From: Escherichia phage vB_EcoS_Uz-1
Direction: 5' to 3' (one strand)
DNA length: 64,000 nt
Sequence record: OP312987.1
Shown here piece by piece: positions 41,694 to 64,000 of this stretch. Under the pieces are notes generated by a model. That model saw nothing but the letters and a program-made list of their open reading frames with translations. It ran no database searches and was not told the origin of the DNA. Within the stretch, counting starts at the first letter, position 1, and each line of letters starts with the position of its first letter. The position numbers and the translations under genes were made by a program.

Positions 41694-43586
41694 TTATTTG
41701 CCAGCGTAGCGTTTAGCCACGGTGACCATTACGGTTGCATTCAATTCATCATCAGGTAATGGATTAGCCAGCTTCTTATTGAATGAGTGGACGGCTTGCT
41801 GTACTTGAGCAAAGTCCCAACCACTGTCAACCAATGCCAGTGCGTACTTAATCATTTGATTATTACGATTACCGGAGGCAATACGACTAGCGAACCAACG
41901 CTCCAGATTATCCAACGACTGTACTTCCTTCATCTGGTTCTGGAACTGCTCGTTCTTACTAGTACGAGGAATAAAGTCACGCACATCTAACAGATTTGCA
42001 TCAAGGTTGTAATGATAAGAACCAGTCTCACAGGACATCCACTTCTTGGCTCGTTGGTTAGCTGACTCATCTGTTTCGAATGGTAGCCAAGCCATAACGT
42101 TATTCATGAACTCTTTGTATTCCTCTGTATCGAGGTGTAACTCATAGTTCATTGGAATAATCAGACGGAAGCGGTTCTCTTCATCAGTATGACGCTTGGT
42201 GGTATAGGTCATGAACTTATATTCCTTCATCAGTTCATGGCACGTATGCAGTGGTACTCCACCATCACAGTCAATAACAATCATGTTAAATCCTGGGATA
42301 ACGTTCTCTTCAGAACGATGCCCATTCTTCATGTGATGGTTTACCCAGTGCATACCGGGAGCTTGGGTTAATACATGCAACTGGTCGAACGGTACGCGTT
42401 CACCAATGTAGTCATAAGCAAAGCTATCACTATATGCCACTATCATCTCATTGATGTCAGTCTCTTTAAGAGTTTCACCACGGAAGAACTCAATACCCTC
42501 ATTGAAGGTCTTCTTAATGATGATGTGCTGTTTGTAACCCCATGCAGTAGCAAGAGTCATCATTTCATTACGAGCTGCATTACCACTCTTATAGAATGGT
42601 AAAGACTCCAGCAAGTCAGCATGAGTTACTTCTTTACCTACGGAGGCAATGTACTTAGCCAGCTTCACATAGGCTTTTTCACGATTAAGGATTGTCTGGA
42701 ATGCTGCCCCAGATTCCTCTACAAGCAGAATTGCTTGTTTAAGGTGAGCCATCTCAATAAATGAACTCTGGTCAACAAATGCCAGTGCACCTGCCAGCTT
42801 AAGAGCTTTGAAGTAACGGTGGGAGATTTCAGCTTTACGAATCTCTTCGTGGTCAGCCATAGCTTCTGCTTGTTTCTCACAATCAATTTTGTAAGTAATC
42901 AGGGCAATACCTACAGCATCTTCCACAATCATCTTAAAGCCAAACAAGTTTGGGTCAGCCAGACTATGGAAGTGGTTAGCCCATTTACCAAGAGACTGTA
43001 CGTTATCCTGTTTAATCAGGTTACGGTAGATTTCTTCTGGGGTTAGTGTTGCATGTGCTCGTTTGTCTAAATGCCCGATGGCAAACAAACAACGACGTGC
43101 ATAACCTGTATCAAGGAAGTCATAGAACTGGTCCTCAGTCTGACCACCATCCAGCAGTTTACTCGGAGTACCAAACAACAGCAGGTTAGTTGGAGTCTTA
43201 CCGTCCAGTTCTTCACCACGAACGCTTTCAGCAGTATTCTTGGTCAGCTTCTGCTTAACCTTACCCTGGTCATATAGCTCCAGAAACAGAGTTAATACAT
43301 CAGAGTTAGCCAACAGATTTGAACCAATTTCATCAATTTGAAGATTGATTGAACCACATCCAGCCATTAACAGTTTATGACGTAGCTGTTTAACTGCTGG
43401 TGGAGTACCTGAGTCAAACGTAAACGGATATGCTCCGGCACGTTTATATTCTGCTTCAACTTTATCAAACTCTTCCTGCTGGTCAGTACCTTGACGTGCA
43501 GAGCGTTCGTTAGCAATCTTCCATAGACGGTCATTTGCAATGACGGGCATGGTGTCTTCCATAAAACGTTTACGGAAGCCAGTCAT
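41694..43586 (-). CDS. DNA primase-like protein (AEP-type motif in C-terminal half)
   Basis: 630 aa; Walker B-like LQIDEIGS in the N-terminal part, hhhDxD-like NMIVIDCDGG in the C-terminal part; start overlaps upstream ORF stop (ATGA). Confidence 0.5.
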   Translation of the reverse strand: MTGFRKRFMEDTMPVIANDRLWKIANERSARQGTDQQEEFDKVEAEYKRAGAYPFTFDSGTPPAVKQLRHKLLMAGCGSINLQIDEIGSNLLANSDVLTLFLELYDQGKVKQKLTKNTAESVRGEELDGKTPTNLLLFGTPSKLLDGGQTEDQFYDFLDTGYARRCLFAIGHLDKRAHATLTPEEIYRNLIKQDNVQSLGKWANHFHSLADPNLFGFKMIVEDAVGIALITYKIDCEKQAEAMADHEEIRKAEISHRYFKALKLAGALAFVDQSSFIEMAHLKQAILLVEESGAAFQTILNREKAYVKLAKYIASVGKEVTHADLLESLPFYKSGNAARNEMMTLATAWGYKQHIIIKKTFNEGIEFFRGETLKETDINEMIVAYSDSFAYDYIGERVPFDQLHVLTQAPGMHWVNHHMKNGHRSEENVIPGFNMIVIDCDGGVPLHTCHELMKEYKFMTYTTKRHTDEENRFRLIIPMNYELHLDTEEYKEFMNNVMAWLPFETDESANQRAKKWMSCETGSYHYNLDANLLDVRDFIPRTSKNEQFQNQMKEVQSLDNLERWFASRIASGNRNNQMIKYALALVDSGWDFAQVQQAVHSFNKKLANPLPDDELNATVMVTVAKRYAGK

Positions 43587-43903
43587 GAACCCGTCTTCGA
43601 TGATATTACTGAGTGACCTTTACCGAAACCAGATGTAGCCAACGCTATAGCGTAGATGTTTACCGGCAGGTCACCACGGTCTTTAGTTACGATGGTTGCA
43701 CCCATGCAGGATGCCATTTTAGCCAAGAAGTAGGCTACTTCGACACGGAAGAATCCCCGGTCATTGTTCTGGGTTTTATTGCAGAGCACATCTACGATTT
43801 CTTCAATCGCTGGATGGTGCACTACTCCGGTAAGGTCAATACTCATGATGGAAAATATCTCTCTCTTTGTTTGCAAATGGTCGCGACAGGGCAGTATAAA
43901 CAA
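43583..43903 (-). CDS. small hypothetical protein, possibly the N-terminal segment of the primase gene
   Basis: 106-aa ORF ending ATSGFGKGHS..., ATGA overlap with the primase ORF. Confidence 0.4.
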   Translation of the reverse strand: MFILPCRDHLQTKREIFSIMSIDLTGVVHHPAIEEIVDVLCNKTQNNDRGFFRVEVAYFLAKMASCMGATIVTKDRGDLPVNIYAIALATSGFGKGHSVISSKTGS

Positions 43904-44823
43904 CGCTTAACCTGCCCCTCCACGACCTTGATAGCACCCTTGCCACCTTTTTCAGCCATGAAGATACGGGCAGATGCCATATCGTCAAAGTTTTTGGTAC
44001 TTCTGGCTCCAGGCACATCTACCTTAGAAGCATCAGAGAAGTATTTGAATTGTGGCTCTGTTCGCCACAACTCCTCGTCAGTACATTCAGGAATTTCCTC
44101 TTCAGGAGCATCCCAGTACTTTTCGATGAGGTGAATCTTCTCTTCCACCCAACGTTCAGTCTTCTCGACAGATAGCAGCGGAATATCCTTATGCATAATA
44201 CGATTAGCAGGATAGTTCGGGTTGCTATTAGCCATGTGTTTCATGAAGTCAGTGAAGATGTAGTTAATACGGATTACATCCTCCGTAATGATGTCGTTAT
44301 GAATCCAACGGTACAAGCTGCCTTGCATCTTGTGTTCATCATCACGGGAACCGGCAACCCAGGAATAGGTTGAGGTAGACTTAAAGTCTTGCAACAGACC
44401 TTCCGTTACGATGTCGAACTTACCACCGATAGTCCAACCCTTAACTACCCTGGTTCCACGTTGTTCAATGTAGATTGGGATAAGGTCTGGGTTAGCATCA
44501 AAGTCTGCTTTGGTTGGGTTAATGACTACTGCATCAATGACTCGCTGAGGATAGCCTAGTTTCTTCAATGCAGTCTTATGCCCCAGCTTCCAGGCTTTCT
44601 CAATAGAATCATGCAAGCCAGTACCCATTGATGTGGAGACGAAATCCATAACATCAATGGATTGTTCACTGAGATCTACGCGATGCTTCATGACGATTTG
44701 CTTAATGGGTTTAAGCAATGTAGTAGCAGACAAGTACTTAGGATTGTCTACATAATCATACTCGTCATGTAATAGCCATACAGCTAGTGCAAGACTAACG
44801 TCGTGTTTGTTGGTAAGTTTCAT
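43843..44823 (-). CDS. PD-(D/E)XK nuclease, Cas4-like exonuclease with C-terminal Cys cluster
   Basis: GKFDIVTEG...QDFK nuclease-like motifs and C-terminal C-x2-C-x5-C (KRCLYCPVATICK); 326 aa. Confidence 0.5.
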   Translation of the reverse strand: MKLTNKHDVSLALAVWLLHDEYDYVDNPKYLSATTLLKPIKQIVMKHRVDLSEQSIDVMDFVSTSMGTGLHDSIEKAWKLGHKTALKKLGYPQRVIDAVVINPTKADFDANPDLIPIYIEQRGTRVVKGWTIGGKFDIVTEGLLQDFKSTSTYSWVAGSRDDEHKMQGSLYRWIHNDIITEDVIRINYIFTDFMKHMANSNPNYPANRIMHKDIPLLSVEKTERWVEEKIHLIEKYWDAPEEEIPECTDEELWRTEPQFKYFSDASKVDVPGARSTKNFDDMASARIFMAEKGGKGAIKVVEGQVKRCLYCPVATICKQRERYFPS

Positions 44824-45317
44824 AACAGTCCCAATTGCTTATTAGTTTTAGCAAACTCACCATAATGAGTTATAGCAGCTTCATCATAGAGAACAGCAGC
44901 TTCTCTTGGGTCATCTGTAAAACCTAATGTAATTGGTTTACTGTTAACCCAAATAGTTGCTCTGTATTTACCTAAATTCTTTGAAAAGGATACCCCCTTA
45001 AATCCAGATGTGTTTGTTTTAGATAAAACAGCACTCTGGTTATTCTGCTTGTGGGTCGCTTCTCTGAGGTTATCTATCCAGTTGTGATGGCGAATATTGT
45101 CCTTATGGTCAATCCTATCCGTAGGCCATACACCGTGCACATAGAACCATGCAAGGATATGCCCATAGTACAACACACTATCTACACGGAGTTGAACGTA
45201 ACCACTCTTCATTAGGTAACCAGATACCTTTCCGGTATTCCTACGAGTAAAAATCCCGGAAATAGGGTCATAACTAACAAGCTGTAAAAGCCTGTCATGG
45301 GCAATCCTCTGTTTCAT
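44820..45317 (-). CDS. HNH homing endonuclease with AP2-like DNA-binding domain
   Basis: HNH motif IDHKDNIRHHNWIDNLREATHKQN followed by GFKGVSF...YRATIW...LGFTDDPREAAVLYDEAA; 165 aa; flanked by a duplicated fragment of the downstream gene. Confidence 0.85.
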   Translation of the reverse strand: MKQRIAHDRLLQLVSYDPISGIFTRRNTGKVSGYLMKSGYVQLRVDSVLYYGHILAWFYVHGVWPTDRIDHKDNIRHHNWIDNLREATHKQNNQSAVLSKTNTSGFKGVSFSKNLGKYRATIWVNSKPITLGFTDDPREAAVLYDEAAITHYGEFAKTNKQLGLL

Positions 45318-45324
45318 AATTAGT

Positions 45325-45392
45325 TACTCGTCATGCAATAGCCATACAGCCAGGGCCAGTGATACATCATGGTTGTTGGTTATCTTCATTAG
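45325..45392 (-). repeat. duplicated 5' fragment of the exonuclease gene (direct repeat with 44757..44823)
   Basis: About 77% identical over 64 nt to the first 64 nt of the exonuclease gene, first 34 nt nearly identical; encodes MKITNNHDVSLALAVWLLHDE-stop versus MKLTNKHDVSLALAVWLLHDEYDY... Confidence 0.7.
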
Positions 45393-45865
45393 TAAGTAAT
45401 CCTGTATCTGTGAACCCAGTTCCACTTAATTTCACTTAGCTGATTGAAGTTATACGAGTAAATTTCATCTCGTTCATCTTTATAAACAATCTCAATGAAT
45501 GAAAATTCTTTAGTGAAGTGAGGTTTACCATTGTTTGTATGGTGCCAATAACTACCAACGGTATTTACATTCGTAGCAGGATCCGGAAATAACTCACTAG
45601 CTAACTTCTCTTTAGCGAGAATACGATTAGCGTAATGAACCAGCTTCTCAGCATCATACACCGAAGAGTTTCCTGGTTTACCATTACCCATACGGGCAGC
45701 AGCATTTCGCCATAGAGCCTTAAAGGCACAACCTTCATCGAAGGTCATGCCCAGTGCCTGGATAATATCCTCACACTCTGCTTGGTATGGCTCTTGCTCT
45801 TTCCGTTGGGGGTTCTTAACTGGTACTACATACCAGTTATTCAATCCACCGGAGAGCTTAGTCAT
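45389..45865 (-). CDS. hypothetical protein
   Basis: 158-aa ORF; its stop overlaps the ATG of the duplicated exonuclease fragment (TAATG). Confidence 0.55.
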   Translation of the reverse strand: MTKLSGGLNNWYVVPVKNPQRKEQEPYQAECEDIIQALGMTFDEGCAFKALWRNAAARMGNGKPGNSSVYDAEKLVHYANRILAKEKLASELFPDPATNVNTVGSYWHHTNNGKPHFTKEFSFIEIVYKDERDEIYSYNFNQLSEIKWNWVHRYRITY

Positions 45866-46170
45866 TATTCCCCCTTGGGAATCATGTTTGCCTGGAACTC
45901 TGGTTCAGACATCAGACCCAGGTTGTTAATGGACAGATAAACAATGTCTTTCAAATCAACCGAAGTGTCGAAACGCTGGTCCAGACTAATTTTAAGAGAG
46001 TGATTGGCACGGGCCAAATCTTTATAGGTCACATGAGGCTCGTCAGTGAGCAGCATTGTGTTCATAGTAAGCAGGGAGCCATCATCAGCTTTGGGAAGCT
46101 GGAAGATTACCTGTGCTGCTACCATCCAATGATATTTTCTGACAACGGTTTCTTTAGTACTTTTAGTCAT
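45865..46170 (-). CDS. hypothetical protein
   Basis: 101-aa ORF directly downstream of the DNA polymerase gene. Confidence 0.5.
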   Translation of the reverse strand: MTKSTKETVVRKYHWMVAAQVIFQLPKADDGSLLTMNTMLLTDEPHVTYKDLARANHSLKISLDQRFDTSVDLKDIVYLSINNLGLMSEPEFQANMIPKGE

Positions 46171-46661
46171 GCGAATGCCTTTTGAATTATTTGATGAACT
46201 TCATCTGGGGTAGCGTGATTTGGAATTTCAATCTCGTTAGCCCACGTTGGATAAAACAAGGATAGTTCCCCACCCAAACCAACTTCTGGATGAGCAATAT
46301 CAGGATGGTCTTGCCAGTTAACGGCTTCAACCAAGTGCTTGTTCGTATACTGTAAGGTATCCATGTTGTCACGGATCATGAAGTATTGGGCATCATGAAT
46401 GTGAATACAAGGACGGATATCTAACCTGAACTCACTGGTTCTGACTTTACGCATAAACTCTGAGCCAGCACGGTTATTAAGTAGACACCAGCTTTGACCT
46501 AATGCATTACCAGCAGTTCTGCCTTCAGCTTCTGCTTCATACGGAGTCTTACATGTCCCACGTAATACCTGAGCCAGTAAAGGAGTACGCACTCTTAAAC
46601 CAAATGCAGCAGTTACATAACCAGTCTTAGCAGCTTCGTCTAGCTTAGCCTGAACCCACAA
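46167..46661 (-). CDS. DNA polymerase family A, C-terminal fragment
   Basis: ...GYVTAAFGLRVRTP ... AEGRTAGNALGQS ... IHIHDAQYF resemble the Pol I C-terminal region and motif C; frame is open upstream to about 46739. Confidence 0.8.
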   Translation of the reverse strand: MWVQAKLDEAAKTGYVTAAFGLRVRTPLLAQVLRGTCKTPYEAEAEGRTAGNALGQSWCLLNNRAGSEFMRKVRTSEFRLDIRPCIHIHDAQYFMIRDNMDTLQYTNKHLVEAVNWQDHPDIAHPEVGLGGELSLFYPTWANEIEIPNHATPDEVHQIIQKAFA

Positions 46662-46669
46662 ATCACTAA

Positions 46670-47122
46670 CTACATAGAGATCGTGATAACGTTTCTCCGT
46701 AGTTTTAGCCTTCTCTTCGGAGAAGCCACAGTTTTCATTAAGCCCATGTAAGTACCACCATAGGTAAGCAGGAAGGTTGGAGCCTTCGAGTCACTACGTA
46801 ATGATTTGTACTTATGCTGAATGGAATTAATGGATTCTACTGTGTCTTCTATGTCTGGCATCTGCTCACCAAAATAAGCATATGCACGGAGACTGTGACC
46901 ATCATAGCCATCGGTATATACCTTAAGCTTCTGCGGGTCTTTAGTAGTTAAAGCTGAGATACGGTCTTCAAGGCTTGCAAAGTCCAGTCCACAAAATATC
47001 CAACCTGGTGGTGCTTCGAAGCATTTCTTAATCTTCTTGGCGTATTTGGAACCACTGGGGATGGTCTGTAGATTAGGCTCGGACGCTGAGAGACGTCCTG
47101 ATACTGTGCCTCCAAATTGAGG
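46670..47122 (-). CDS. DNA polymerase family A, middle fragment (motifs A and B)
   Basis: Hand translation of a second frame: PQFGGTVSGRLSASEPNLQTIPS ... CGLDFASLEDRISA ... KAPTFLLTYGGTYMGL; the ORF track shows only its last 63 codons (46670..46861). Confidence 0.7.
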   Translation of the reverse strand, partial: PQFGGTVSGRLSASEPNLQTIPSGSKYAKKIKKCFEAPPGWIFCGLDFASLEDRISALTTKDPQKLKVYTDGYDGHSLRAYAYFGEQMPDIEDTVESINSIQHKYKSLRSDSKAPTFLLTYGGTYMGLMKTVASPKRRLKLRRNVITISM

Positions 47123-48633
47123 TTACCGAACAGGTAGTGCCATCCATCTGGTCCAGGTTGTGCATTACGGAAAGCTGGGATGAATGAAGTGATGATCTTA
47201 TCCACCAGCTTATAGTCGATAAGTGCATTGAGCAGTTCCTTAACATCTTCACTCTGCGTATGTGTACGCAGTGCTTTAATAGTGTCACCGTCAGTAGCAG
47301 GTTGCTTGCTCTTAGTAAGACCAAGAACCGGTAAGCCGATGTAGTCAAATAACAATTTCTGTAATTGTGGACCAGAGTTAGGATTAAACTCTATGTCACA
47401 ATCAGCCAACGTTACCTGCTTCTTCTTAAGCTTGGCATTCTTATCGTCTACCCATTCCTGACGAAGCATCAGGGTGAAGTTCTTCATGAGCTTAGACTCA
47501 CGAATAGTTTTCAGAGCCTGGTTCCTGTCAGTTTCCATTTCTTCAGCTACTTGGTTAACGGTTTCCATATTCATGGGCATACCGGTTAACTGCATCTGAA
47601 TAATGTCTTCGCAGGCTGGTTTAAAGATGTTGTTATAAACATCTAGTTGGTTATCAGCTACCAGGGTATCCCAGTGTTTCTCGTAGGTGTACCAGGTACA
47701 CAAACCATCAATAAGGTTGTATCGTAACAGTTGCTCATTAGGAATGAGACGAATGTCTTTAATATCATCCTGAGCATAGTTACCAGCATACTCCTGAGCC
47801 TGCTCTTTTAGACTAAGGTGATTACCAGCACAACTGTTAGTAGCTAAATAAGTAATTAATTTAGTACAGTCCCAGTTACGCAGCATGATGTCCATGCCAT
47901 GCAGTAAGCCTCCAGTATCAATCAGGTTATCCATGAATAACTGATAAATAAGTATGTACACATCATAACTAATGTTGTGATACATCTGCCGTTGGGTGTA
48001 CTTAATGAAGAACTCACGGAGAAGATTTCGAACAATATCATTACGATTGATTCTCCCATAAGGTGCTTCAGTAGCTCCCCTAATTGGCTCGTAATCCACA
48101 TTAAAGGCTATGCCCTGTGTCTTACTCCAACAGAACGTAATTGTTCCTATACCTGCGTTATAGTGCTTTAAACCGAATGCCTCGATGTCTATAGCCAGAG
48201 GCTTATTCATCTCAAGCAACTGGTCTAGCCAGGCTTTAATCTTTTCTGGAGTATCTGGATAGGCTTCAAACTCAATGATTCCCTGACCTGGTTCAGCATA
48301 CTGCCCACGTATGTGGTTTAGTAATGCATCCATACCCTGAGCAATTTTGGCTCTCACTACAGGTGGGTCATAAAAGACCTGTCTGTAACTAGGCGTATAG
48401 ATAACTTTCTGTTTACCCCATACTGAATCACAAACATAGCCGAGATTAGCCTCTGCTTTAGCCTCTTTAGTCAGTATTTTGAAGTAATCAGAATCGGTGC
48501 AGATAATGTACTGGGTCTCTGCATCATCCAGTACTTGCTGCAATTCCTGCTTTATGAACTCCTTAATCTCTCTTGCTGGGGTCTTCTTCTTGCCCGGAGC
48601 AGAGTGAAGTTCAATAAAGATGAAGTCTTCCAT
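46948..48633 (-). CDS. DNA polymerase family A, N-terminal fragment with 3'-5' exonuclease motifs
   Basis: LAIDIEAFGL (Exo I-like) and HNISYDVY (Exo II-like) in a 561-aa ORF; authentic sequence ends near 47100; a strong SD plus ATG at 48670 joins this frame if the T3 run at 48658-48660 is one base longer. Confidence 0.8.
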   Translation of the reverse strand: MEDFIFIELHSAPGKKKTPAREIKEFIKQELQQVLDDAETQYIICTDSDYFKILTKEAKAEANLGYVCDSVWGKQKVIYTPSYRQVFYDPPVVRAKIAQGMDALLNHIRGQYAEPGQGIIEFEAYPDTPEKIKAWLDQLLEMNKPLAIDIEAFGLKHYNAGIGTITFCWSKTQGIAFNVDYEPIRGATEAPYGRINRNDIVRNLLREFFIKYTQRQMYHNISYDVYILIYQLFMDNLIDTGGLLHGMDIMLRNWDCTKLITYLATNSCAGNHLSLKEQAQEYAGNYAQDDIKDIRLIPNEQLLRYNLIDGLCTWYTYEKHWDTLVADNQLDVYNNIFKPACEDIIQMQLTGMPMNMETVNQVAEEMETDRNQALKTIRESKLMKNFTLMLRQEWVDDKNAKLKKKQVTLADCDIEFNPNSGPQLQKLLFDYIGLPVLGLTKSKQPATDGDTIKALRTHTQSEDVKELLNALIDYKLVDKIITSFIPAFRNAQPGPDGWHYLFGNLNLEAQYQDVSQRPSLIYRPSPVVPNTPRRLRNASKHHQVGYFVDWTLQALKTVSQL

Positions 48634-51480: not shown

Positions 51481-53529
51481 TTACTTAACGTGCTTTGACA
51501 GCTTAGTAGCCAATTTGCTCTCTTCTTCAGTCAGACCCATTGCAGCTGAAGACTTCTTAGCTGCACGCTTATAGTCTTGTAGGGCATGACCTTTCTGATA
51601 GTCAGAGATAGGACTATCTTCAGGATGTACGCAGATTATCATGGCATGTTTACCAGTAATGGCAGGCTTATATTTAGTGGGTAGAACGGTCTTAGCTTGC
51701 TTCACTGGTTTTGGTTTGCCGATGGGTTTAGCTGTGTAAGTTGTACGTACATCAGCAATCTTAGCCACTACATCGGAACCAACTCCTAAAGCAGCCCATG
51801 GCTTACGGGCCTTGCCTCGCATTTCCACAAGCAAATCAGCAGCAGCTAATTTATCTTCTGGGGTTGTTGCATTGAGGAACTCTTTGACCAGTTCCTGGAT
51901 TTGTTCTTTCACAGTAGGAGCCTTCTTAATAACGGGTTTAAGGTCAGTAGCCTTCACTGGTTCAGAAGCTACAGTTTCATTCAGTGACTCTTCCATATTC
52001 AGTGCTTCTTTATTAGCAACTGTACGGAATTGTTCTACAGAACCAGATGTGAGATTAGTATATTTGAGGTTAGTACCACGATGTCCACCAACCATAACAA
52101 GTGTGGTAGGTGAACTATGGTTCCCAACGATGGCATCATTAAGCAACTTCTTACCTACTTCTGTCTTAGACAGATAGATACCGTTGTTAACGTTGCAACG
52201 TTCCTCTTCCGGCAGTTCAGCAATAATGTGATATGCAGATACACGCATCTTATTAGTGCTGTACTGAGGAACAGCAAATACATCTTCTGGTGCTACTTTA
52301 CCAAGGATAGTTACGTTACCACCGAAGCTACGAATGTAGCTCATGGATGCTACATGCAGACCATTAGAACAGTCCTGGCGACGGTCAGGGTCTACCAGGT
52401 CTTCGCGTACCTGCACTTTACATCCTACCCATTGACGAATGTTGCCTGAGTGACAATCAACGAATACACGTTTACCATTCTCTAGACTTCTATACTTCAG
52501 ACGTTTCAGGAACAGGATTGAACCATCATCAGCAATAGGTAGCTCAGCAGTTTCCATGAACTTCATCAGGTCTTCAACTGAGTGTAGACGGTCTTTAATT
52601 ACTGGAGCCAGACGCTCAAGGAACTTAGTAAAGCCCTTGTAGTCTTTCAGTTGGGCAGACTGACGCAAGTGACGTTGCAGGTTCTCAACTCCAGGGATAA
52701 CCCCATCGTTGGTAACAGCAACAACCACTTCATCTTCCTTCACATCAGTGTGGAAGTTAGCGTCATCAGTACTAATAGCACCCAATGCAGCCAGTTTCTC
52801 AGAAGCAGCAGCCAGCTTATCCTGATTCGTAACTTTAACCTCTTCTACATAAGGCAGTGGAGTTTCATCGCGACTGGTAAATACAATGTGTACTCCTTTG
52901 ATATGTTTGGCTTGTTTAGCAAACTCACTCATTTCATCATCGGATACTGCACGAATTGCAATAGGCCATTCTTGCTTAAGAATGCTGTCAGTATGCTTAT
53001 AACTCCAACACAGTACATCATTAATAAAACGAACCAGTGCAGGATGGTTATGGTCCTTGTCCCAACCAGTAACCCACATCAGATTGTCACGTTTATCGTA
53101 ACAACCGTCTGCTACTGTTACTTCTGGTTCATTAGCCTGGACAGCCAGGAAGGTATCCATAGCTCTAGACACCAGCGTCTTAGTGGGATTTCCCAGCTTA
53201 ATATCTGAGACGATTCGGGCTGGTTGAGTACTTGTACCATCTTCGAAGAACTCTTTGAGTTTAGCCTTAGCTACCTTGAAGAAACGGACGAATCCGTTAG
53301 TGTTCTTCTCTGCTTCCAGATATTCAGTACGCAGGTTTACTTCTGGTGCAATGTTTACTTCTATCTGGTCTTTGGTAGTTCCCAGACCTTTGGTTTGTGC
53401 TTCAGATACAATACGAGCAACCCGTGGGTCGCTCTGAGGATATACAATCGTGGAGCCATCAGGCTTCCACAGTGTAAGGTTACGACTGTCAACTGCCAGT
53501 GCGATGATAGAAATCAGTTCGATTTTCAT
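51481..53529 (-). CDS. large hypothetical protein, rIIB-like candidate by position
   Basis: 682-aa ORF downstream of the rIIA-like gene; no motif verified. Confidence 0.4.
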   Translation of the reverse strand: MKIELISIIALAVDSRNLTLWKPDGSTIVYPQSDPRVARIVSEAQTKGLGTTKDQIEVNIAPEVNLRTEYLEAEKNTNGFVRFFKVAKAKLKEFFEDGTSTQPARIVSDIKLGNPTKTLVSRAMDTFLAVQANEPEVTVADGCYDKRDNLMWVTGWDKDHNHPALVRFINDVLCWSYKHTDSILKQEWPIAIRAVSDDEMSEFAKQAKHIKGVHIVFTSRDETPLPYVEEVKVTNQDKLAAASEKLAALGAISTDDANFHTDVKEDEVVVAVTNDGVIPGVENLQRHLRQSAQLKDYKGFTKFLERLAPVIKDRLHSVEDLMKFMETAELPIADDGSILFLKRLKYRSLENGKRVFVDCHSGNIRQWVGCKVQVREDLVDPDRRQDCSNGLHVASMSYIRSFGGNVTILGKVAPEDVFAVPQYSTNKMRVSAYHIIAELPEEERCNVNNGIYLSKTEVGKKLLNDAIVGNHSSPTTLVMVGGHRGTNLKYTNLTSGSVEQFRTVANKEALNMEESLNETVASEPVKATDLKPVIKKAPTVKEQIQELVKEFLNATTPEDKLAAADLLVEMRGKARKPWAALGVGSDVVAKIADVRTTYTAKPIGKPKPVKQAKTVLPTKYKPAITGKHAMIICVHPEDSPISDYQKGHALQDYKRAAKKSSAAMGLTEEESKLATKLSKHVK

Positions 53530-53533
53530 CAGA

Positions 53534-53779
53534 TTAGTTACCTTTCAGTTTATTTAGACGATTACGGTAGAGGGACTTAAACCCAGGAATATCCTCTGGA
53601 TTCTTCTTAAGGTGTTTGACCAAACTACCTAAGTCCAGCGTCTGTAGGATGTCATTTTTATTCCAGCTATAACTGAATAATTCTTTGTAATCATTAAGTA
53701 TTTTAAAGTACTTATGATTACGCGGATTAGTCATTATTGCATATGGCTCTAAGTCATCCACTGACTTAATACAACCCAT
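53534..53779 (-). CDS. hypothetical protein
   Basis: 81-aa ORF between the rIIA-like and 682-aa genes. Confidence 0.45.
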   Translation of the reverse strand: MGCIKSVDDLEPYAIMTNPRNHKYFKILNDYKELFSYSWNKNDILQTLDLGSLVKHLKKNPEDIPGFKSLYRNRLNKLKGN

Positions 53780-53880
53780 TTCAACAAGTTTTTCTTTGTT
53801 GTCGTGTGGTCGATTCCGTAGAAAGTCATATGCCCATTCATATTCTGGTTTAAAAATCAGATTCTGTAATGGTTTGAAGG

Positions 53881-55263
53881 TTAGACCAGTATGTCTAGGA
53901 TTTCCCAGTATTCCCTGTCATCCAGTCCTACGTATTCCAGAATACCAATACGGTGTTCAGTAACATATTTCTTGAAGCCTTTACTGGTAATAACTGGCAT
54001 CAGCTCCATAAAGCGAACATCATCAATGTGGATAGCACCTCTCCGTTTGGCCTTGTTAGCTTCGATTTGATTACGGCAGACAACAGTCTCTGCTCTCATC
54101 TCATCAGATAACTCATACCATTTCCACATGGTTCCAATTCGAGCAGTTACTGGGCTACCTGAACCAACCTGATTGGCTAGTACGTAGTACTTAGGTTGCT
54201 CTACTTCAACGAAACCAGACTTATCATGGCGACTTGGGTCTGCAAATTCCTTCTGAATATAAGGCTTTGGTTCCCAATCCCCATTTTTATTCCGTATTTG
54301 GGTAGCACCAAGAACTGCATTCAATGAAATCAGAGAATTAGTTTTACCTCCTGCCTTGGTTTTATTGGCAGCGATTGTCTTAGACCGTTTCTCAGCAGCT
54401 ATCTTAGCTTTCTCTCTACGGAAGTTAGTTGGTTTGTCCCACTCATTATATTGAGTAAGGTCGATTACCCGATAACCCATAGCAGTGAACTTAGCCACAG
54501 CTTCTTCTGCTGCACCCTTCTTAGGTCCAACGACGTGAACAAAAGCTGTACGCTCCAGGTCACCTCGATCGTACTCAGGGAAGTACGAGAAAGAGTCTGC
54601 ACAGTCAGACAAACGTCGGGTAACTACAACGTTTTTGGTAGTGAATATGCCAATACTTTGGTGGGAGTTATTGTATATCCTAAAGTAGTCAGTAAGTTTA
54701 CCTTTTACCAAGTCAACACGGTTACCTTGATTCATTATGTAACCAGACCACTTAATACCAGAGGTTTTCAAAGCAGCCAGCTGAGGTAAGTGCAGATGGC
54801 GATATACTAATTCCGAGAATGGGGAGTATGTACTTTCTTCACGAGTATCCTTAAGAGCACGCATAGCCTTACCATACAGTTTCTTAAGACCTGCGTATTC
54901 AGGACGAGCTAATAATGCCTTATTGGATAAATTACGCCAGTGCTTGATGTAATGCTTACGTTGCTTAGCCCACAAACTAGAGGACATATAGCGTTGAACA
55001 GTTCTGTCTGTAACAGCACCCAGGAATGATGGATACTCCCAGAAGCGAGTAGAGGATTTAGAAGCATATTCTTCAACCTGCTTAATGGCTTCAGGAATCT
55101 TAGCCTTAATCTCTTTCTCCATACGGTCTACTAAATCTACACATAGAGTAGTAATACCATCGTCGGTTAACTTCTGGTTAGACAGCGTTTCTCGACTAGG
55201 AGCAATAGCTAAAGTGTCTGGTGCAGCCTGAACTACTAGATTAGAAGCACCAATAATATTCAT
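53881..55263 (-). CDS. rIIA: rIIA-like protein, C-terminal fragment
   Basis: 460-aa ORF starting 17 nt after the GHKL-ATPase ORF in another frame with no SD; its frame is open ~20 codons upstream into the other ORF's end. Confidence 0.55.
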   Translation of the reverse strand: MNIIGASNLVVQAAPDTLAIAPSRETLSNQKLTDDGITTLCVDLVDRMEKEIKAKIPEAIKQVEEYASKSSTRFWEYPSFLGAVTDRTVQRYMSSSLWAKQRKHYIKHWRNLSNKALLARPEYAGLKKLYGKAMRALKDTREESTYSPFSELVYRHLHLPQLAALKTSGIKWSGYIMNQGNRVDLVKGKLTDYFRIYNNSHQSIGIFTTKNVVVTRRLSDCADSFSYFPEYDRGDLERTAFVHVVGPKKGAAEEAVAKFTAMGYRVIDLTQYNEWDKPTNFRREKAKIAAEKRSKTIAANKTKAGGKTNSLISLNAVLGATQIRNKNGDWEPKPYIQKEFADPSRHDKSGFVEVEQPKYYVLANQVGSGSPVTARIGTMWKWYELSDEMRAETVVCRNQIEANKAKRRGAIHIDDVRFMELMPVITSKGFKKYVTEHRIGILEYVGLDDREYWEILDILV

Positions 55264-55280
55264 GAAGTTGAGGATAAGGC

Positions 55281-56099
55281 CTACAGCTTCTTCACTAGCT
55301 GGGCTGGATACAATTGGTACATTACATTACCGTAGCGAACGTATATGTTACTGCTACCCATATAGCCTTGATACCATCTATCAGACATATCATATGAACC
55401 AGGTTCAAATGGCATGCCTAGTGTATCCAGTAGAGTGTAGTCGCCTTGTTGAATACTATTACTCTCGTCTGTTCTAATGAGTTTGGGAGTACTTAGCTCA
55501 GCTTTAATTTCACCGTTAAACACAATTGATTTGATGTAATGAATAAAGGTATTTAAATCATGTTTGCCTAACTGGAATTTAACTTCCAGACCAGATTCCT
55601 CAGTAGGAATACCAGTAATAATAGGAACAATACCAGGCTTACCATCATTCTCAATTGCAGCCTTAGCTACGTTATATACAGACATCTTCCCTTGGTTCCA
55701 TGATGTAACCTGGAAGCTATCTGTATAAGCGAATGGGGATTTACATCCCAGACCAAAGCCACCAGTAACACTACTGTTGGACTTCTTGGTAGATGCACCA
55801 TAGACACCATAAATGGAGCCAATGAGTTCATCTTGGATACCGTTACCGAAGTCACGGAAGGTAATAAAGTTGTCAGTATCAATGGTAATACGGATAGGAG
55901 TATCAGTCTTACCTGCTTCAATATGGGCATCCCAACTGTTACAGATAGTTTCACGGACTACTGCCAGAGTAGGGTTGTTATACAAGGAAGTACTTAATAC
56001 ATGAAAGAATGCCGGGTCATCAGAGATGCCAAAGGCGATTGCTTCTTTGCCACCCAGTGTCGCTGAAGTGGCTGATTGATTGGTATCTGCAACTAACAT
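55281..56099 (-). CDS. rIIA: rIIA-like protein, N-terminal GHKL (Bergerat-fold) ATPase fragment
   Basis: ExxxNxxDA-type VRETICNSWDAH, DxGxG-type FRDFGNGI and Gly-rich VTGGFGLGCKSPF motifs, as in GyrB/Hsp90/MutL-type ATPase domains found at rIIA N-termini. Confidence 0.65.
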   Translation of the reverse strand: MLVADTNQSATSATLGGKEAIAFGISDDPAFFHVLSTSLYNNPTLAVVRETICNSWDAHIEAGKTDTPIRITIDTDNFITFRDFGNGIQDELIGSIYGVYGASTKKSNSSVTGGFGLGCKSPFAYTDSFQVTSWNQGKMSVYNVAKAAIENDGKPGIVPIITGIPTEESGLEVKFQLGKHDLNTFIHYIKSIVFNGEIKAELSTPKLIRTDESNSIQQGDYTLLDTLGMPFEPGSYDMSDRWYQGYMGSSNIYVRYGNVMYQLYPAQLVKKL

Positions 56100-56126
56100 T
56101 TATTTACTCTCCAGTTTAAATGTTGC

Positions 56127-56375
56127 TTACATTAGAACTTGTTTACACTTATCAAAAATAGCTTTACGAAGTTCAGCTTCTTCCCGTGGTTCATCATTAG
56201 GATGGTGACCTACAGGACTATTTTGAAAAGCATTCATTAGGAATAAGACCTGATACTCGGTTAAACCATTAATCTGAATGCTATACGTTTTCTCTGAGGC
56301 GATATTTACATTAGCCATTGCGTTTACCTGCCATTGCTTGTAATACAAACACAGCCATATCTGATGCCATGTCAT
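56127..56375 (-). CDS. small hypothetical protein
   Basis: ORF track 82 aa; probable start at internal Met (MANVNIAS...) near 56318 because of overlap with the upstream ORF. Confidence 0.4.
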   Translation of the reverse strand: MTWHQIWLCLYYKQWQVNAMANVNIASEKTYSIQINGLTEYQVLFLMNAFQNSPVGHHPNDEPREEAELRKAIFDKCKQVLM

Positions 56376-56685
56376 CTGTTATATCGTTGACCGTTCCATA
56401 TGGTAGTGGGCCGTTCTCTTCCCAGTTATCTAACGTGTTTTGTACTTCAGCTAAACCAGCCTGAATCATTTCCTTGCTTGGTTCCAGCCATAACTTACGT
56501 TCCTCTGCTAGTGCAGCGATGCATATGCATAGAGAGGCAATGTTAGCTGGACAAGCAGCAATATCACCAGTTACTGCAATCTCACTGAGTGGGACAGCCT
56601 TACCGGTTTTACTATGAATTACTTCAGGGTTAATCATGAATTTGCTCCAGGTTATGGGCAGGAATAGGGAAGCATGGATAGTCAC
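56311..56685 (-). CDS. hypothetical protein
   Basis: 124-aa ORF. Confidence 0.45.
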   Translation of the reverse strand: MTIHASLFLPITWSKFMINPEVIHSKTGKAVPLSEIAVTGDIAACPANIASLCICIAALAEERKLWLEPSKEMIQAGLAEVQNTLDNWEENGPLPYGTVNDITDDMASDMAVFVLQAMAGKRNG

Positions 56686-56842
56686 CGGTAGGGTCCAGTG
56701 TTACTGACACATGCAGTGTATTTGTCATTTGGGTTAGCATCTGAGCAGCATTGAAATCATCCTGGATACAGGCATATACAATGTCGCCCTTCTCACCCTC
56801 ACACATTACGGGTGTGTCTTTGATACGGTATTTAGCAGGCAT
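56630..56842 (-). CDS. small hypothetical protein
   Basis: 70-aa ORF immediately downstream of a minus-strand terminator. Confidence 0.4.
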   Translation of the reverse strand: MPAKYRIKDTPVMCEGEKGDIVYACIQDDFNAAQMLTQMTNTLHVSVTLDPTGDYPCFPIPAHNLEQIHD

Positions 56843-56867
56843 ATGCCCTCCTGAAAGAGTTAATTGA

Positions 56868-56897
56868 AACCAAAAAAGACCTCCCGGAGGAGGTCTT
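56868..56897 (-). terminator. intrinsic terminator
   Basis: AGACCTCC-CGGA-GGAGGTCT hairpin followed on the minus strand by TTTTTTGG. Confidence 0.7.
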
Positions 56898-56901
56898 AGG
56901 T

Positions 56902-57117
56902 TTACTTACGATTTTGTTCTACAAATCGTATCATTTGTTTTTTCACTTCTTCTTGCTCACGAATTGCTTCGTAGTCACGAGCAAAGTAGTAAACACACCA
57001 TAAACCAATCTCGCTTACAAAGAACAGAATACTAGCTCGAATGAACTGCATATCTGTTTCTACGACAAAGGCAACTTTGTATGCGTAGGTCAGTGTTAGT
57101 AGGGTACTAATTAGCAT
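56902..57117 (-). CDS. small membrane protein
   Basis: 71 aa with two hydrophobic segments. Confidence 0.5.
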   Translation of the reverse strand: MLISTLLTLTYAYKVAFVVETDMQFIRASILFFVSEIGLWCVYYFARDYEAIREQEEVKKQMIRFVEQNRK

Positions 57118-57136
57118 TGCGTATAGAGCTAGTTTT

Positions 57137-58081
57137 TCATTCTGTAATTGTTTCTCCGGGGATTAGTTTACGGAATTGGATGAAATCCAGTAAGTTGCCA
57201 GAATACAGCTTACCTTCACGGTCCATAGATGTAACACCCTGTTCCCATGTTAATGGGTTCTGGTTGTTCACATACTTATCACCAACAGTCATAGGAGTTG
57301 CCTGGTGTTCGGTAGGGGATGCATGAATAGGTTGGTTTTCAACTAACTTAGCAAACAATCCTAAGTCCTCTTCAATAGTAGATGGACGGCCTTCGAAATT
57401 GTTGTAAGAAGCACGAGCACAACGAGCAGCACTTACTTTAAGAAGTAAGCCATACACTTCTTCACGACTTGGCTCATCACGAGTAATTCGCTGATGTTTG
57501 CAGTAATTATAAGCCCCGACACGATCAATATGAGCAATATACGGTAAATGCCATTCCCCTTGTGGGAGTGCTCTCGTAGTGCTTTCATTGTGTGCCTTAC
57601 GCATTGCTTGAGCCAGTTCACGAATCTCTGGTTGAGCGTCCTCATGGTCACGCAATCCATAGAAGTTAGTCCAGCTAGTTGAAGTTACCACTACACGGAT
57701 ATGTGTGAATGGTTCCAGAATACGGTTAACAATCTGCTTATGTACTTGACCACGACGAAGCATTTCTGCATAGGTAGCAGCACTGGACGCAGCCTGATTC
57801 CAGATAAAGATTGCATCTACGTTGGTCTTCGGACTGAGTTCCTCAAATGCCTGCATACCCTTCTGGTTCTTACCCCAGTGACTTGGCATCACTGGTTCAT
57901 TACGAACCTGTTCGATGAACTTAGAAGTAGGGATAGCACGACTACTTGAAGCATTTCGGTTGAATACACGGTGAGTCATAAACTCACTGTGGATGAATCG
58001 GGGGTAAACCAATTCAAAGGTAGTAATACGAGTTCCTGTTTCTGGGTGAACGGAATCTGCAATGACAGTTGCCTTAATCAT
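57137..58081 (-). CDS. thyX: ThyX-like (flavin-dependent thymidylate synthase family) protein, tentative
   Basis: Segment TTFELVYPRFIHSEFMTHRVFNRNASSSR resembles the ThyX core around the RHR...S.R signature as recalled, with T in place of the first R; 314 aa. ThyA motifs absent. Confidence 0.45.
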   Translation of the reverse strand: MIKATVIADSVHPETGTRITTFELVYPRFIHSEFMTHRVFNRNASSSRAIPTSKFIEQVRNEPVMPSHWGKNQKGMQAFEELSPKTNVDAIFIWNQAASSAATYAEMLRRGQVHKQIVNRILEPFTHIRVVVTSTSWTNFYGLRDHEDAQPEIRELAQAMRKAHNESTTRALPQGEWHLPYIAHIDRVGAYNYCKHQRITRDEPSREEVYGLLLKVSAARCARASYNNFEGRPSTIEEDLGLFAKLVENQPIHASPTEHQATPMTVGDKYVNNQNPLTWEQGVTSMDREGKLYSGNLLDFIQFRKLIPGETITE

Positions 58082-60634: not shown

Positions 60635-61234
60635 TTACCTGGCATCTGTCCACCAGCCATTTTCTGGCTTTGCATTGCACGTACTACGTTGTTGACAACA
60701 GCACCCTGGGACTGCCCGGAGTGGGGATTTCATGTCGCCAGCAAGACCTGCTCCAGCACCCCCTGACGGCTTCTGCCTTTTCTGAGGGTTCTTCATCAAG
60801 TCATCGTAGATATCTTCTTCGACCCATCCTTTATATTGAGGGTCTTTGCAAATACCTTTGTCGATACCAGTGAATTTGTAACCATCTTCTTCTAACTGAA
60901 GGTTAATGAAGTGGTCACATGCCTGGTTCCAGACTTCTGGGTCACGGCTTCCACGACGGATGTCATGTAGATATGCCACATGCCAGAGTTCGTGCATTAA
61001 CACTGTTTCTCTTGCGTCTGGACACATCCAGATAAAGAAATCTGGATTGAAATGGAGTTCTATCCCATCGGTACATGCAGTGGGACAATCCTCGCGTTTC
61101 CACGAGAACTTAAGACTACATAGTAATGAACCAAAGAACGCAGCGCTTCGACCTAGGAAAGCCTGAGCTTGAATACGATCATATTCACGCATGAGTTGTT
61201 CATCTGTGAGACTATGCGTAGGTATACTGTTCAT
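60635..61234 (-). CDS. zinc metallopeptidase-like fragment (HExxH), N-terminal part of metallopeptidase-VWA protein
   Basis: HELWHVAYLH motif; C-terminal ~40 aa of the ORF look out of frame (Cys/Gln-rich). Confidence 0.55.
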   Translation of the reverse strand: MNSIPTHSLTDEQLMREYDRIQAQAFLGRSAAFFGSLLCSLKFSWKREDCPTACTDGIELHFNPDFFIWMCPDARETVLMHELWHVAYLHDIRRGSRDPEVWNQACDHFINLQLEEDGYKFTGIDKGICKDPQYKGWVEEDIYDDLMKNPQKRQKPSGGAGAGLAGDMKSPLRAVPGCCCQQRSTCNAKPENGWWTDAR

Positions 61235-61712
61235 TAGGGTGCTCCATGATTGGGGTGATAGCCATACAGTTTTTCAGCCGCTTTTCTGGCGTCTATGGCA
61301 TCTTGCTTGTCTGCAAAAGTGCCCAAACTTACCAGACGTGTTCCATCAGATATAGCTGCATACCAGATGGAATCACGCTTGTGCCAGTACACACCAGTAA
61401 CACCACTGGAATTAGTTACCCGTTTCTTTTGGTTTCTGGTGTTAGTTCTGCTGTCTACTAATCTAAAGTTACTTAGAAGGTTATTAACCCTATTGTGGTC
61501 TAGGTGATCAATCTGCATACCTTTCGGGATAGGTCCATTGTGCATTTCCCATATGACACGGTGCACTTTGTAACTTTTGCCCTTATAGTTGAAGCATAAA
61601 TAACCATCGCTATTTAGATTACCTACCTTTTTCCAGCAATGCCTCTGGAGGCTACTGTAACTTTCCAGAATAGCTCCCCATTTATGTAAACGAGTATGTC
61701 ATTCCAGTTCAT
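61234..61712 (-). CDS. HNH homing endonuclease with AP2-like domain, frame-shifted in this assembly
   Basis: ORF track 61234..61566 has HNH motif IDHLDHNRVNNLLSNFRLVDSRTN and AP2-like tail; the N-terminal ~50 aa (MNWNDILVYINGELFWKV...) lie upstream in another frame from ATG 61712, joined if an A5 run gains one base. Confidence 0.75.
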
Positions 61713-61719
61713 GTTGTGA

Positions 61720-62220
61720 TTATCCGTGAATGTAGCGGGAGATGTTAGCAGCAGCCTTACGCCATTCAGGGGTAGCCTGAAGTTCTGGCAATGCTCTGCC
61801 TACTGTACGAAAGTACAGAATCTTATGAGTGAACGTTTTAAAGCGTTCAATGTACTGAAGAACATCAGCGAAGTTTTCCTCAGTAGTTTTGTTAGCCAGA
61901 TGGTTAACGGTAGCCCAACACAGGTTATTATCTTCCGGTAGTGTACAGCCCATAGGGTCTTTGACTACCTTATCAATCGTAATGATACGATTGTACACCT
62001 GTGTAAATTGAACAAACTCTGTAGCCTTACCAGCAGTAACGTGTCCTGCATAGTAGATAGAATCTTCATCAGGCAGAGCACCTTCAGGACGGTTCTTGAG
62101 GTCTTTGTTAACAAAGTCCCAGGTACGAGGGCAACAGAACGTTTTGTTCTTATGTGCTGGGTCGAAGTCATGCAGATAACCGGGGTTAGCATGTAAGAAT
62201 GCAACCAGACGTTCATCCAT
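61720..62220 (-). CDS. MoxR-like AAA+ ATPase, C-terminal fragment
   Basis: 166-aa ORF overlapping the 3' part of the ATPase ORF in another frame; protein-like sequence. Confidence 0.5.
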   Translation of the reverse strand: MDERLVAFLHANPGYLHDFDPAHKNKTFCCPRTWDFVNKDLKNRPEGALPDEDSIYYAGHVTAGKATEFVQFTQVYNRIITIDKVVKDPMGCTLPEDNNLCWATVNHLANKTTEENFADVLQYIERFKTFTHKILYFRTVGRALPELQATPEWRKAAANISRYIHG

Positions 62221-62771
62221 TGTTGTGGAATCATTACGTCTTCAACAAAGATGTCGAAGTTAAGTTCCATTTCGAAGTGGACAACACGGGACTGCATTGC
62301 AGTACCCAGTGGGTTAACGATGGCACGGTCAGTAGCTTTGTTACCAGCACAGATAATCATCACATTAGGATGAAGTTTTTTCTGACCAGTCATACGGTCT
62401 AGAATCAGTTTATATGCAGCAGCTATTACTTCTTTGCGAGCAGATGGGAACTCATCAAGGAATAAGAGCCAGCCATTATATCCTTCCGGTATTTTATCCC
62501 CTTCAATTGGGAATAAGTCAGCGAATGGAATAAACTCTGCACGGTCACCATTACGGAATGGTAAGCCAGAAAGGTCTTCCGGGGCAGAAGTTGACAGACG
62601 ATGGTCTATCAACTTCATACCAAATTCTTCTGCAATAGAACGAATGATTGCAGATTTACCCATGCCAGGTGATGAAGTCAGGAACGGTACGTTACCTGCT
62701 TTCAAAGCACGGATAATAAAGTTACGAGCTTGACGTGAATTACATACGGTCAAGGAGTCAATGCTTGCCAT
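61965..62771 (-). CDS. MoxR-like AAA+ ATPase, N-terminal part
   Basis: Walker A SSPGMGKSA, Walker B LLFLDEFPSA, ICAGN sensor-like motif; last ~60 aa look out of frame. Confidence 0.7.
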   Translation of the reverse strand: MASIDSLTVCNSRQARNFIIRALKAGNVPFLTSSPGMGKSAIIRSIAEEFGMKLIDHRLSTSAPEDLSGLPFRNGDRAEFIPFADLFPIEGDKIPEGYNGWLLFLDEFPSARKEVIAAAYKLILDRMTGQKKLHPNVMIICAGNKATDRAIVNPLGTAMQSRVVHFEMELNFDIFVEDVMIPQQWMNVWLHSYMLTPVICMTSTQHIRTKRSVALVPGTLLTKTSRTVLKVLCLMKILSTMQDTLLLVRLQSLFNLHRCTIVSLRLIR

Positions 62772-62805
62772 TTACTTACTCTCCTAAAGCTAATGGAATT
62801 ACTGA

Positions 62806-63969: not shown

Positions 63970-64000
63970 TTCCTGGCTCCAGATGTAGAAAACCCAGTCA

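Follow-up and report, generated by a model that had tools for sequence, protein, structure and literature searches.

A free-standing HNH endonuclease gene that likely brought a foreign start to the exonuclease gene it occupies in Gamaleyavirus phages

Introduction

Phage 21 and e14 in icd, like the islands found in tRNA and tmRNA genes, are integrating elements that carry a replacement gene end, and loss of the cox1 intron in angiosperms leaves exonic co-conversion tracts. The locus described here recalls both. It lies in Escherichia phage vB_EcoS_Uz-1 (OP312987.1), of which a stretch of 64,000 nt (hereafter the window) was analysed, and consists of a gene for an HNH endonuclease set between two diverged copies of the 5′ end of an exonuclease gene homologous to N4 gp42, namely an upstream copy B, now an orphan open reading frame (ORF), and a downstream copy A that starts the exonuclease in use (Table 1). 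Comparison with relatives makes it likely that this is a free-standing HNH(-AP2) homing-endonuclease cassette which, together with a foreign exonuclease start, sits 64 nt inside gp42 of a Gamaleyavirus. As with the icd and tRNA elements, mobile DNA would have brought a diverged gene end that yields a hybrid gene and leaves the target functional, although those elements rely on integrases and attachment sites and replace 3′ ends, and no integrase is present here. As with the cox1 tracts, alleles lacking the element appear to keep a short foreign tract beside the former site (the scar alleles described below), but the element was an intron there and is a free-standing gene here, where the tract also changes four amino acids.

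The elements known as mORFs are found in atp6 of Allomyces macrogynus (Paquin, Laforest and Lang 1994) and in atp6, atp9, cox2 and nad3 of Glomus (Beaudet et al. 2013, PMC3630166). In these a foreign C-terminal gene end arrives with an endonuclease ORF, and the native end persists as a partial duplicate (PMC3630166). The present locus likewise has an endonuclease ORF inside a host gene, a foreign in-frame substitute end and the native end adjoining as a partial duplicate. The figures are similar too, the native remnant being 91–98% identical to relatives in mORFs and 88–100% here, and the two duplicates being 64–81% identical there and 66–70% here, with mostly synonymous differences. In contrast, it is the 5′ end that is replaced in the phage, with the remnant upstream, whereas mORFs replace the 3′ end; the enzyme is of the HNH type, not LAGLIDADG or GIY-YIG; a lytic phage takes the place of a mitochondrion as host; and the remnant is an open mini-ORF that is presumably coupled in translation. 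We file the locus as a mORF-like variant by its putative way of working, not as a member of the mORFs.

Among phages, the seg and mob genes of the T-even group spread with flanking DNA via double-strand-break repair in mixed infections, a process called ‘intronless homing’ (PMC2988022). Our HNH gene resembles these free-standing endonucleases as an optional gene between conserved genes, outside any intron or intein; the T4 enzymes, however, are intergenic and cut hundreds to thousands of base pairs away, whereas the gene studied here lies inside an ORF and cleavage is predicted near the insertion. One-sided illegitimate double-strand-break repair at microhomologies has been shown in T4 (Parker et al. 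1999, as summarized in PMC2988022), and such repair has been proposed as the route of endonuclease elements to ectopic sites. Homology on one side and a microhomology junction on the other are features shared with our locus, the left junction of which has only TA in common; the T4 events came from a laboratory assay, whereas here we see an apparently natural, fixed product that restores the target gene. Finally, nrdA of Aeromonas phage Aeh1 is split by mobE (PMC3045599), again a free-standing HNH gene inside an important phage gene that retains its function. The Aeh1 gene is broken into two polypeptides that reassemble, while the exonuclease gene stays whole through the new start supplied by the cassette.

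GenBank records annotate the HNH gene. The records inspected and the literature searched contained no account of the duplication, of the orphan ORF or of the hybrid start of the exonuclease. On our reading of the locus, a free-standing endonuclease gene that provides a substitute start can settle within a conserved replication gene, needing neither intron nor intein and leaving the gene unsplit, which would extend a 3′-end phenomenon of fungal mitochondria to the 5′ end of a phage gene. With its natural gain-and-loss series (empty, occupied and at least three scar classes), a phage genus that is used in therapy allows a direct test of both the endonuclease target and the homing cycle. Neither the orphan mini-ORF nor the hybrid start is annotated in the records inspected, and both can mislead gp42 phylogenies and recombination analyses.

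Results and discussion

An optional gene at one fixed site

The best match to the locus is phage Bp4 (96.3%, same coordinates), one of the G7C-like N4-like coliphages of the genus Gamaleyavirus. The HNH gene occurs at this position in eight GenBank phages (Bp4, PD38, ECBP1, PW8, G7C, Mimir124, 24-32N and EC1-UPM) and is absent from it in about 32 others. We read the empty junction directly in six HNH-less Gamaleyaviruses (ST4, PhAPEC7, phi G17, PhAPEC5, SP5M and U1G) and in the N4-type outgroup AlfredRasser; in all of these the gp41 stop overlaps or directly precedes the exonuclease ATG. The HNH gene is optional at one fixed site, with a clean empty site in close relatives. A first-pass annotation of this DNA had proposed a mobile HNH cassette within the exonuclease 5′ end, flanked by a duplication of that end, and this much was borne out: gp41 abuts the exonuclease start in the six HNH-less Gamaleyaviruses and the outgroup, as it had anticipated, no HNH-less genome retaining both repeat copies was found, and the orphan does not belong to any longer functional ORF.

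The direct repeat itself (44759–44823 against 45325–45389; 65 nt, 78% identical, spacing 566 bp) was the single strong family returned by a repeat search. A match of at least 51/65 has a probability of about 1e-15 for any one pair, and the 2.2-kb region contains about 2.4e6 pairs; the repeat is confirmed as real and chance is negligible. The first 34 nt had been called nearly perfect, which is roughly right on the plus strand, where one mismatch falls in the first 26 nt and three in the next eight. The repeat reaches 78% and includes such a stretch because copy A of the window is chimeric: counting from the exonuclease ATG, as we do throughout, nt 1–50 (44823..44774) are cassette-type and nt 51–64 (44773..44760) native-type, the latter in the window only. 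No inverted repeats were found at the ends of the insert by repeat search, and its only ORF is the HNH gene; there is no transposase or integrase.

Native and foreign exonuclease starts

The exonuclease begins MKITNNHDVSL[A/P]LAVWLLHDE in every HNH-less genome examined and in N4, and at the nucleotide level the HNH-less start matches copy B, not copy A. The approximately 120 exonuclease homologues listed are native-type as well (MKITNNHD...LLHDE or similar). Native alleles are identical to one another at 58–64/64 positions, copy B is identical to the native alleles of empty sites at 56–64/64 and copy A to native alleles at 40–45/64. Eleven sites of copy B vary across 15 carriers, all of them synonymous or an ATG/GTG exchange at the start. 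Copy A reads MKLTN[K/N]HDVSLALAVWLVTDD in all carriers except the window, being cassette-type throughout, and departs from the native sequence by four amino-acid changes, synonymous change close to saturation and a serine codon switch from TCA to AGT. Its divergence from copy B is similar across the 15 other carriers (genomes and assemblies; 42–45/64 identical, a count that excludes two loci whose copy B has a 3-nt deletion) and lower in the window (50/64 identical).

Fixed differences between HNH-bearing and HNH-less loci occupy exonuclease nt 6–63, ending at nt 64, with shared polymorphisms beyond; polymorphism picks up again at about nt 68 and within copy B. The foreign block therefore coincides exactly with the duplicated block, the outcome expected if 566 bp had simply been inserted where the cassette lies, between nt 64 and 65 of the resident gene. 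Judged from these sequence comparisons, copy B is the native exonuclease 5′ end and copy A is foreign. Three parts of the first-pass annotation fall with this. The upstream copy, described there as decaying, is close to empty-site alleles and varies only at synonymous positions or the start codon; the divergence ascribed to it resides in the downstream, functional copy; and the target was apparently not duplicated from resident sequence, copy A being in all likelihood a foreign replacement start brought by the cassette. Copy A restores a full-length exonuclease ORF of 326 amino acids in all carriers, and its start codon, frame and conserved N-terminal motif are preserved in 16/16 loci.

A variant left junction, …CATGGGTAACTAGTTATG, is present in 24-32N and EC1-UPM (L010 and L011, at about 1056–1080), where a 3-nt deletion shortens the orphan to 20 codons (…LLHG*). 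It is the sole change seen in the 3′ part of copy B.

The HNH gene and co-inheritance of the cassette

The HNH protein matches Pfam HNH_3 at 36.9 bits (cut-off 24.8). Its C-terminal region reaches 19.2 bits with AP2, under the cut-off of 33.3 for that family, and resembles plant AP2/ERF structures weakly (WRI1 AP2 structure, E = 0.0048), while many of its homologues bear precomputed PF00847 matches. Residues H71, N83 and N92 are invariant among the homologues, and the ORF is intact, with no internal stops, in 16/16 loci. Cassette subtypes differ in this gene by up to 47 nt but by only 11 amino acids, which indicates purifying selection on the ORF. No RNA structure hiding the HNH start was predicted (z = +1.4). 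In EC1-UPM the HNH gene is annotated short, the full ORF of 165 amino acids being open.

Searching for exact copies of the HNH protein gave 22 contigs, including eight new independent assemblies. All eight have the canonical architecture, next to gp41 variants of 94, 155, 157, 158 and 166 amino acids. Over ten loci chosen for an identical HNH protein (the eight assemblies, Bp4 and ECBP1), synonymous diversity per codon was 0.035 in the HNH gene and 0.024 in copy A, compared with 0.19 in copy B and 0.12 in exonuclease codons 22–326. At each locus synonymous differences to Bp4 were fewer in the cassette than in the exonuclease (Fisher's test, P from 0.03 down to 8e-11), and the synonymous diversity of copy B resembles that of the flanks, not that of the cassette. 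On these counts copy A is apparently co-inherited with the HNH gene, and copy B follows the background; one cassette sits in many backgrounds, with sharp boundaries.

Scar alleles

Five assemblies, from five separate samples, have HNH-less exonuclease starts that join native 5′ to cassette-type 3′ sequence. These scar alleles combine a native start with cassette-type codons 17–21 and fall into three crossover classes, with the crossover before nt 27 (L017 and L019), at nt 33–36 (L018 and L021) or at nt 40–50 (L020). The scar type accounts for 2/15 sampled members of the exonuclease cluster, and no scar allele was found among isolated GenBank phages (best match 92.6%). Such alleles are the expected products of cassette loss or of partial conversion, and would thus record past contact with the cassette.

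The same gene order in other N4-like lineages

In a large protein collection, homologues 54–57% identical to the HNH protein were found in three other N4-like lineages (L033, L034 and L037/L038); its relatives in GenBank are at most 40% identical. The upstream genes differ in these lineages, and the exonucleases have 323 and 325 amino acids (L033 and L034; that of L037/L038 extends past the contig end). In all three the HNH gene is free-standing and directly upstream of the exonuclease gene, its stop overlapping the exonuclease start or lying 12 nt before it, and neither an orphan copy nor a flanking repeat was found (repeat test for L033 and L034, reading of the gap for L037). The exonuclease N-termini contain WLVRDT, WLVDDS and WLVDDN, closer to the WLVTDD of the cassette than to the native WLLHDE. 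Copy A is identical to the native start at 43–44/64 positions in the cross-genus comparison, in which exonuclease genes of different N4-like genera are identical to each other at 40–49/64.

A degenerate DNA pattern for WLVTDDYDYV matched only G7C and ECBP1 in IMG/VR and, in JGI metagenomes, only two HNH-less scar alleles; none of the 120 exonuclease homologues listed has LVTDD natively. GC-rich hairpins followed by a T-run, resembling intrinsic terminators, lie 5′ of the HNH gene in L034 (2443–2500) and L037 (2440–2500) and are absent from the Gamaleyavirus cassette.

A proposed origin and homing cycle

We suggest that the donor was a divergent, unsampled N4-like phage with a free-standing HNH gene just upstream of its exonuclease gene; the most economical reading would make the linkage of HNH gene and exonuclease start ancestral to this HNH family. 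A break near exonuclease nt 64/65 in a Gamaleyavirus would have been repaired from this donor. The right junction would have formed by homology across the universally conserved YDY codons. On the left, where the upstream genes lack homology, joining would have been illegitimate, with just TA in common. Repair would thereby have copied the HNH gene and donor exonuclease nt 1–64 while keeping the resident start. The 566-bp insert, on this model, supplies the final two bases of the stop codon ending the resident frame after codon 21, the 6-nt spacer, the HNH gene and foreign exonuclease codons 1–21 fused to resident codon 22. A full-length hybrid exonuclease would still be made, and copy B would be left as an orphan ORF translationally coupled to gp41.

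Once established, the cassette may spread among Gamaleyaviruses by homing, with copy B as the left homology arm and exonuclease nt 65 onward as the right arm. Copy B would be swapped for the allele of the recipient at each transfer, and would therefore remain native-like and vary only synonymously. The carrier genome would be spared from the predicted cleavage, copy B being interrupted at nt 64 and copy A recoded upstream of it. Copy B has native sequence as far as nt 64, where it is interrupted, whereas the recoding of copy A reaches nt 64 and native sequence follows; the target is accordingly predicted to span nt 64/65. The sharp cassette boundaries fit this, suggesting cleavage at or near the insertion point. 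Loss could follow either from recombination between copies B and A or from an incoming break repaired from a carrier without copying of the HNH gene, both of which would leave scars. The overlapping or closely spaced stops and starts (TAATG between gp41 and the orphan, 6 nt before the HNH gene, ATGA between the HNH gene and the exonuclease gene) suggest a translational relay.

A wider combination of claims can be offered only tentatively, as we consider it rather less probable than its failure. It holds that this is the first phage case of gene-end replacement by a homing-endonuclease cassette, and that such replacement is a general intron-free route into essential ORFs. The orphan ORF would then be a working part, both as a left arm refreshed from each recipient and as a step in a ribosome relay from gp41 through the orphan and the HNH gene to the exonuclease. 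The native start, the recoded copy A, the three scar classes and, if real, the chimera of the window would together map the site over nt 64/65.

Alternative explanations

Several observations weigh against import of a foreign start by a mobile cassette. Searches of IMG/VR, of JGI metagenomes and of the listed protein matches yielded no lineage natively starting MKLTN.HD...WLVTDD. Because the ten loci were chosen to share one HNH protein sequence, cassette diversity is necessarily lowered, although the test was made on synonymous sites only. HNH subtypes diverge by up to 9%, like the backbone, so that the history may be largely vertical, and the window sequence may be a Bp4-templated consensus. 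The subtype divergence, together with the general mosaicism of phage genomes, is also what favours a resident HNH gene, no longer mobile and inherited vertically in one Gamaleyavirus clade, with apparent mobility due to ordinary recombination of the flanks. We regard this as improbable, given a near-identical cassette on diverse gp41 and exonuclease backgrounds, sharp boundaries at both ends of the insert and an ORF under purifying selection. The model of the first-pass annotation, in which the target was duplicated from resident sequence on insertion and the upstream copy is a decaying remnant, accounts for a direct repeat flanking the insert and for the empty site of relatives. It is nevertheless very improbable: nothing sets the upstream copy apart from functional empty-site alleles, and its variation is synonymous only; the divergence sits in the downstream copy, the one in use; and the insert has no terminal inverted repeats, the only protein domains found in it being HNH_3 and a weak AP2, with no transposase. 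A transposon-style target-site duplication was likewise rejected, the two copies not being equally related to the empty-site allele (B native-like, A foreign-like).

A duplication in place, after which copy A was recoded to escape the endonuclease or to suppress deletion between the repeats, would explain why most differences between A and B are synonymous, and recoding would both protect from cleavage and stabilize the insert. It would, however, need about 20 changes within 64 nt, including four amino-acid changes and a switch of serine codon family, next to exonuclease sequence with ordinary polymorphism. In addition, the stop of HNH homologues from other genera is already fused to a WLV.D.-type exonuclease start, and import therefore explains both the linkage and the sequence. 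Recoding is possible but unlikely in our estimation, and less economical than import given the inter-genus divergence and the donor-type arrangement seen elsewhere. A group I intron or intein, with copy B as exon 1 joined to codon 22 after removal of the HNH gene and copy A, could be thought of, as HNH-bearing introns are annotated in the DNA polymerase genes of relatives. A search of Rfam gave no group I intron match (only chance-level snoRNA matches, E = 1.9–7.2), the 6-nt spacer and the HNH stop overlapping copy A leave no room for a ribozyme, and copy A retains its start codon, frame and conserved N-terminal motif in 16/16 loci. A group I intron is excluded on the first two of these grounds, and the likelihood of splicing of either kind is minimal. 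Import of a foreign start remains the reading we prefer.

Layout of the locus

The gp41 gene, the orphan ORF, the HNH gene and the exonuclease gene all lie on the minus strand (Table 1). The orphan has 21 codons (MKITNNHDVSLALAVWLLHDE) and its TAA stop (45326..45324), a product of the insertion, is separated from the HNH start by 6 nt. The exonuclease of the window begins MKLTNKHDVSLALAVWLLHDEYDY and gives a weak Pfam match to PDDEXK_1; the conserved N-terminal motif across its 1447 homologues is WLxxD[ED]YDY. The gp41 product is labelled polynucleotide kinase/phosphatase in some records and had no Pfam match.

Table 1. Positions of the features of the locus in the window.
Feature	Position	Strand	Remarks
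gp41	45865..45389	-	N4 gp41 homologue; TAA stop shares one base with the orphan ATG (TAATG)
Copy B (presumed displaced native exonuclease 5′ end)	nt 1–64, 45389..45326; with stop, 45389..45324	-	
Inserted cassette (proposed), 566 bp	45325..44760	-	AACTAATT, HNH ORF, putatively foreign exonuclease nt 1–64
HNH gene	45317..44820	-	165 amino acids; TGA overlaps the exonuclease ATG (ATGA)
Exonuclease gene	44823..43843	-	N4 gp42 homologue, PD-(D/E)XK-like; 326 amino acids
Copy A (putative replacement exonuclease 5′ end, in use)	44823..44760	-	Fused in frame at codon 22
Bp4-identical block, 837 bp	44774–45610		Last 221 bp of gp41, copy B, HNH gene, copy A nt 1–50

Provenance of the version in the window

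Between 20001 and 64000 the window differs from Bp4 (NC_024142.2, same coordinates) by 2850 substitutions (6.5%), with no insertion or deletion over 44 kb. Seven blocks of more than 500 bp are identical to Bp4, namely 53267–55679, 62503–64000, 56116–57142, the 837-bp block of Table 1, 37465–38250, 35698–36318 and 61200–61722, the last of which covers Bp4 orf67. This pattern suggests a consensus templated on Bp4 or else an unusual mosaic. The flanks of the 837-bp block are 4–5% diverged from Bp4, and the block itself was either transferred recently or filled in from the reference. Both sequences have a frameshift in the primase gene, a 1-nt deletion in an A-run at 43607–43608 (GGTAAATATC to AGTAATATC), which in the window splits the gene into ORFs at 43583..~43846 and 41694..43586; the primase is intact (717 amino acids) in G7C, PhAPEC7, phi G17 and most metagenome assemblies (in a few it is cut off by the contig end). 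The DNA polymerase is in pieces as in Bp4 (46948..48633, 46670..46861 and 46167..46661), compared with a single protein of 859 amino acids in relatives, and the pieces probably reflect sequencing frameshifts of Bp4 rather than introns. Likewise rIIA (53534–56099) is annotated as three ORFs in Bp4, while PD38, which has 2 additional bases over this stretch, has one rIIA gene; here too the window shares insertions or deletions specific to Bp4. Relatives are 88–93% identical in the Bp4-identical rIIA block, which makes that block non-discriminating with respect to DNA too divergent to be mapped.

We lean slightly towards the view that the locus as it stands in the window, and there only, is an artefact of assembly on a Bp4 reference, the sampled phage having had no cassette or a canonical one. 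The 837-bp block and the chimeric copy A would then stem from reference fill-in and read mapping. The substitutions without any insertion or deletion, the primase deletion and split polymerase ORFs in genes that are whole in other assemblies, and the identical blocks bordered by locally high divergence all point that way. So does the chimeric copy A, which was absent from the 15 other carriers, IMG/VR, the protein collection and the 15 sampled members of the exonuclease cluster. On the other side, the reciprocal chimeras, that is the scar alleles, occur in independent de novo assemblies, so that recombination inside the repeat is natural, and by our reasoning the common local aligners would soft-clip reads and not produce this exact junction. 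Alternatively, the chimera may have arisen by real recombination with a breakpoint within the 11-nt shared core, and would then be the reciprocal product to the scar alleles. The general architecture is independent of whether the chimera is real.

Variation in gp41 and other HNH genes nearby

The 3′ end of gp41 is hypervariable, with products of 94 to 166 amino acids across loci. The variant of 94 amino acids (L017, 2239–2523; L019, 696–980; L026, 1167–1451; L030, 1167–1451) overlaps the exonuclease or orphan start by 23 nt, and GTG replaces ATG at that start in three of these four loci (L017, L019 and L026).

A second optional HNH_3 gene (P0133, 48% identical) lies between the exonuclease and primase genes in EC1-UPM, U1G, L018, L035 and L036. 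The coordinates of this second site are 2549–2698 in L011, 1986–2135 in L013, 1723–2083 in L006, 3478–3993 in L018 and 2501–3016 in L035/L036. No flanking repeat was found at the second site in L018. An HNH gene is annotated between the exonuclease and primase genes in PhAPEC5, and the window has no second HNH gene there. The exonucleases of EC1-UPM and U1G, in which the second HNH gene is present, end ...YYP* instead of ...YFPS*.

Two further adjacent HNH ORFs, orf66 and orf67, are annotated in Bp4 at a position corresponding to 60635–61545 of the window. An HNH/NUMOD gene interrupts or follows the DNA polymerase gene in L017 (550–1227), L034 (441–1037) and L037 (342–929), and the annotations of PhAPEC5 and PhAPEC7 include a polymerase intron.

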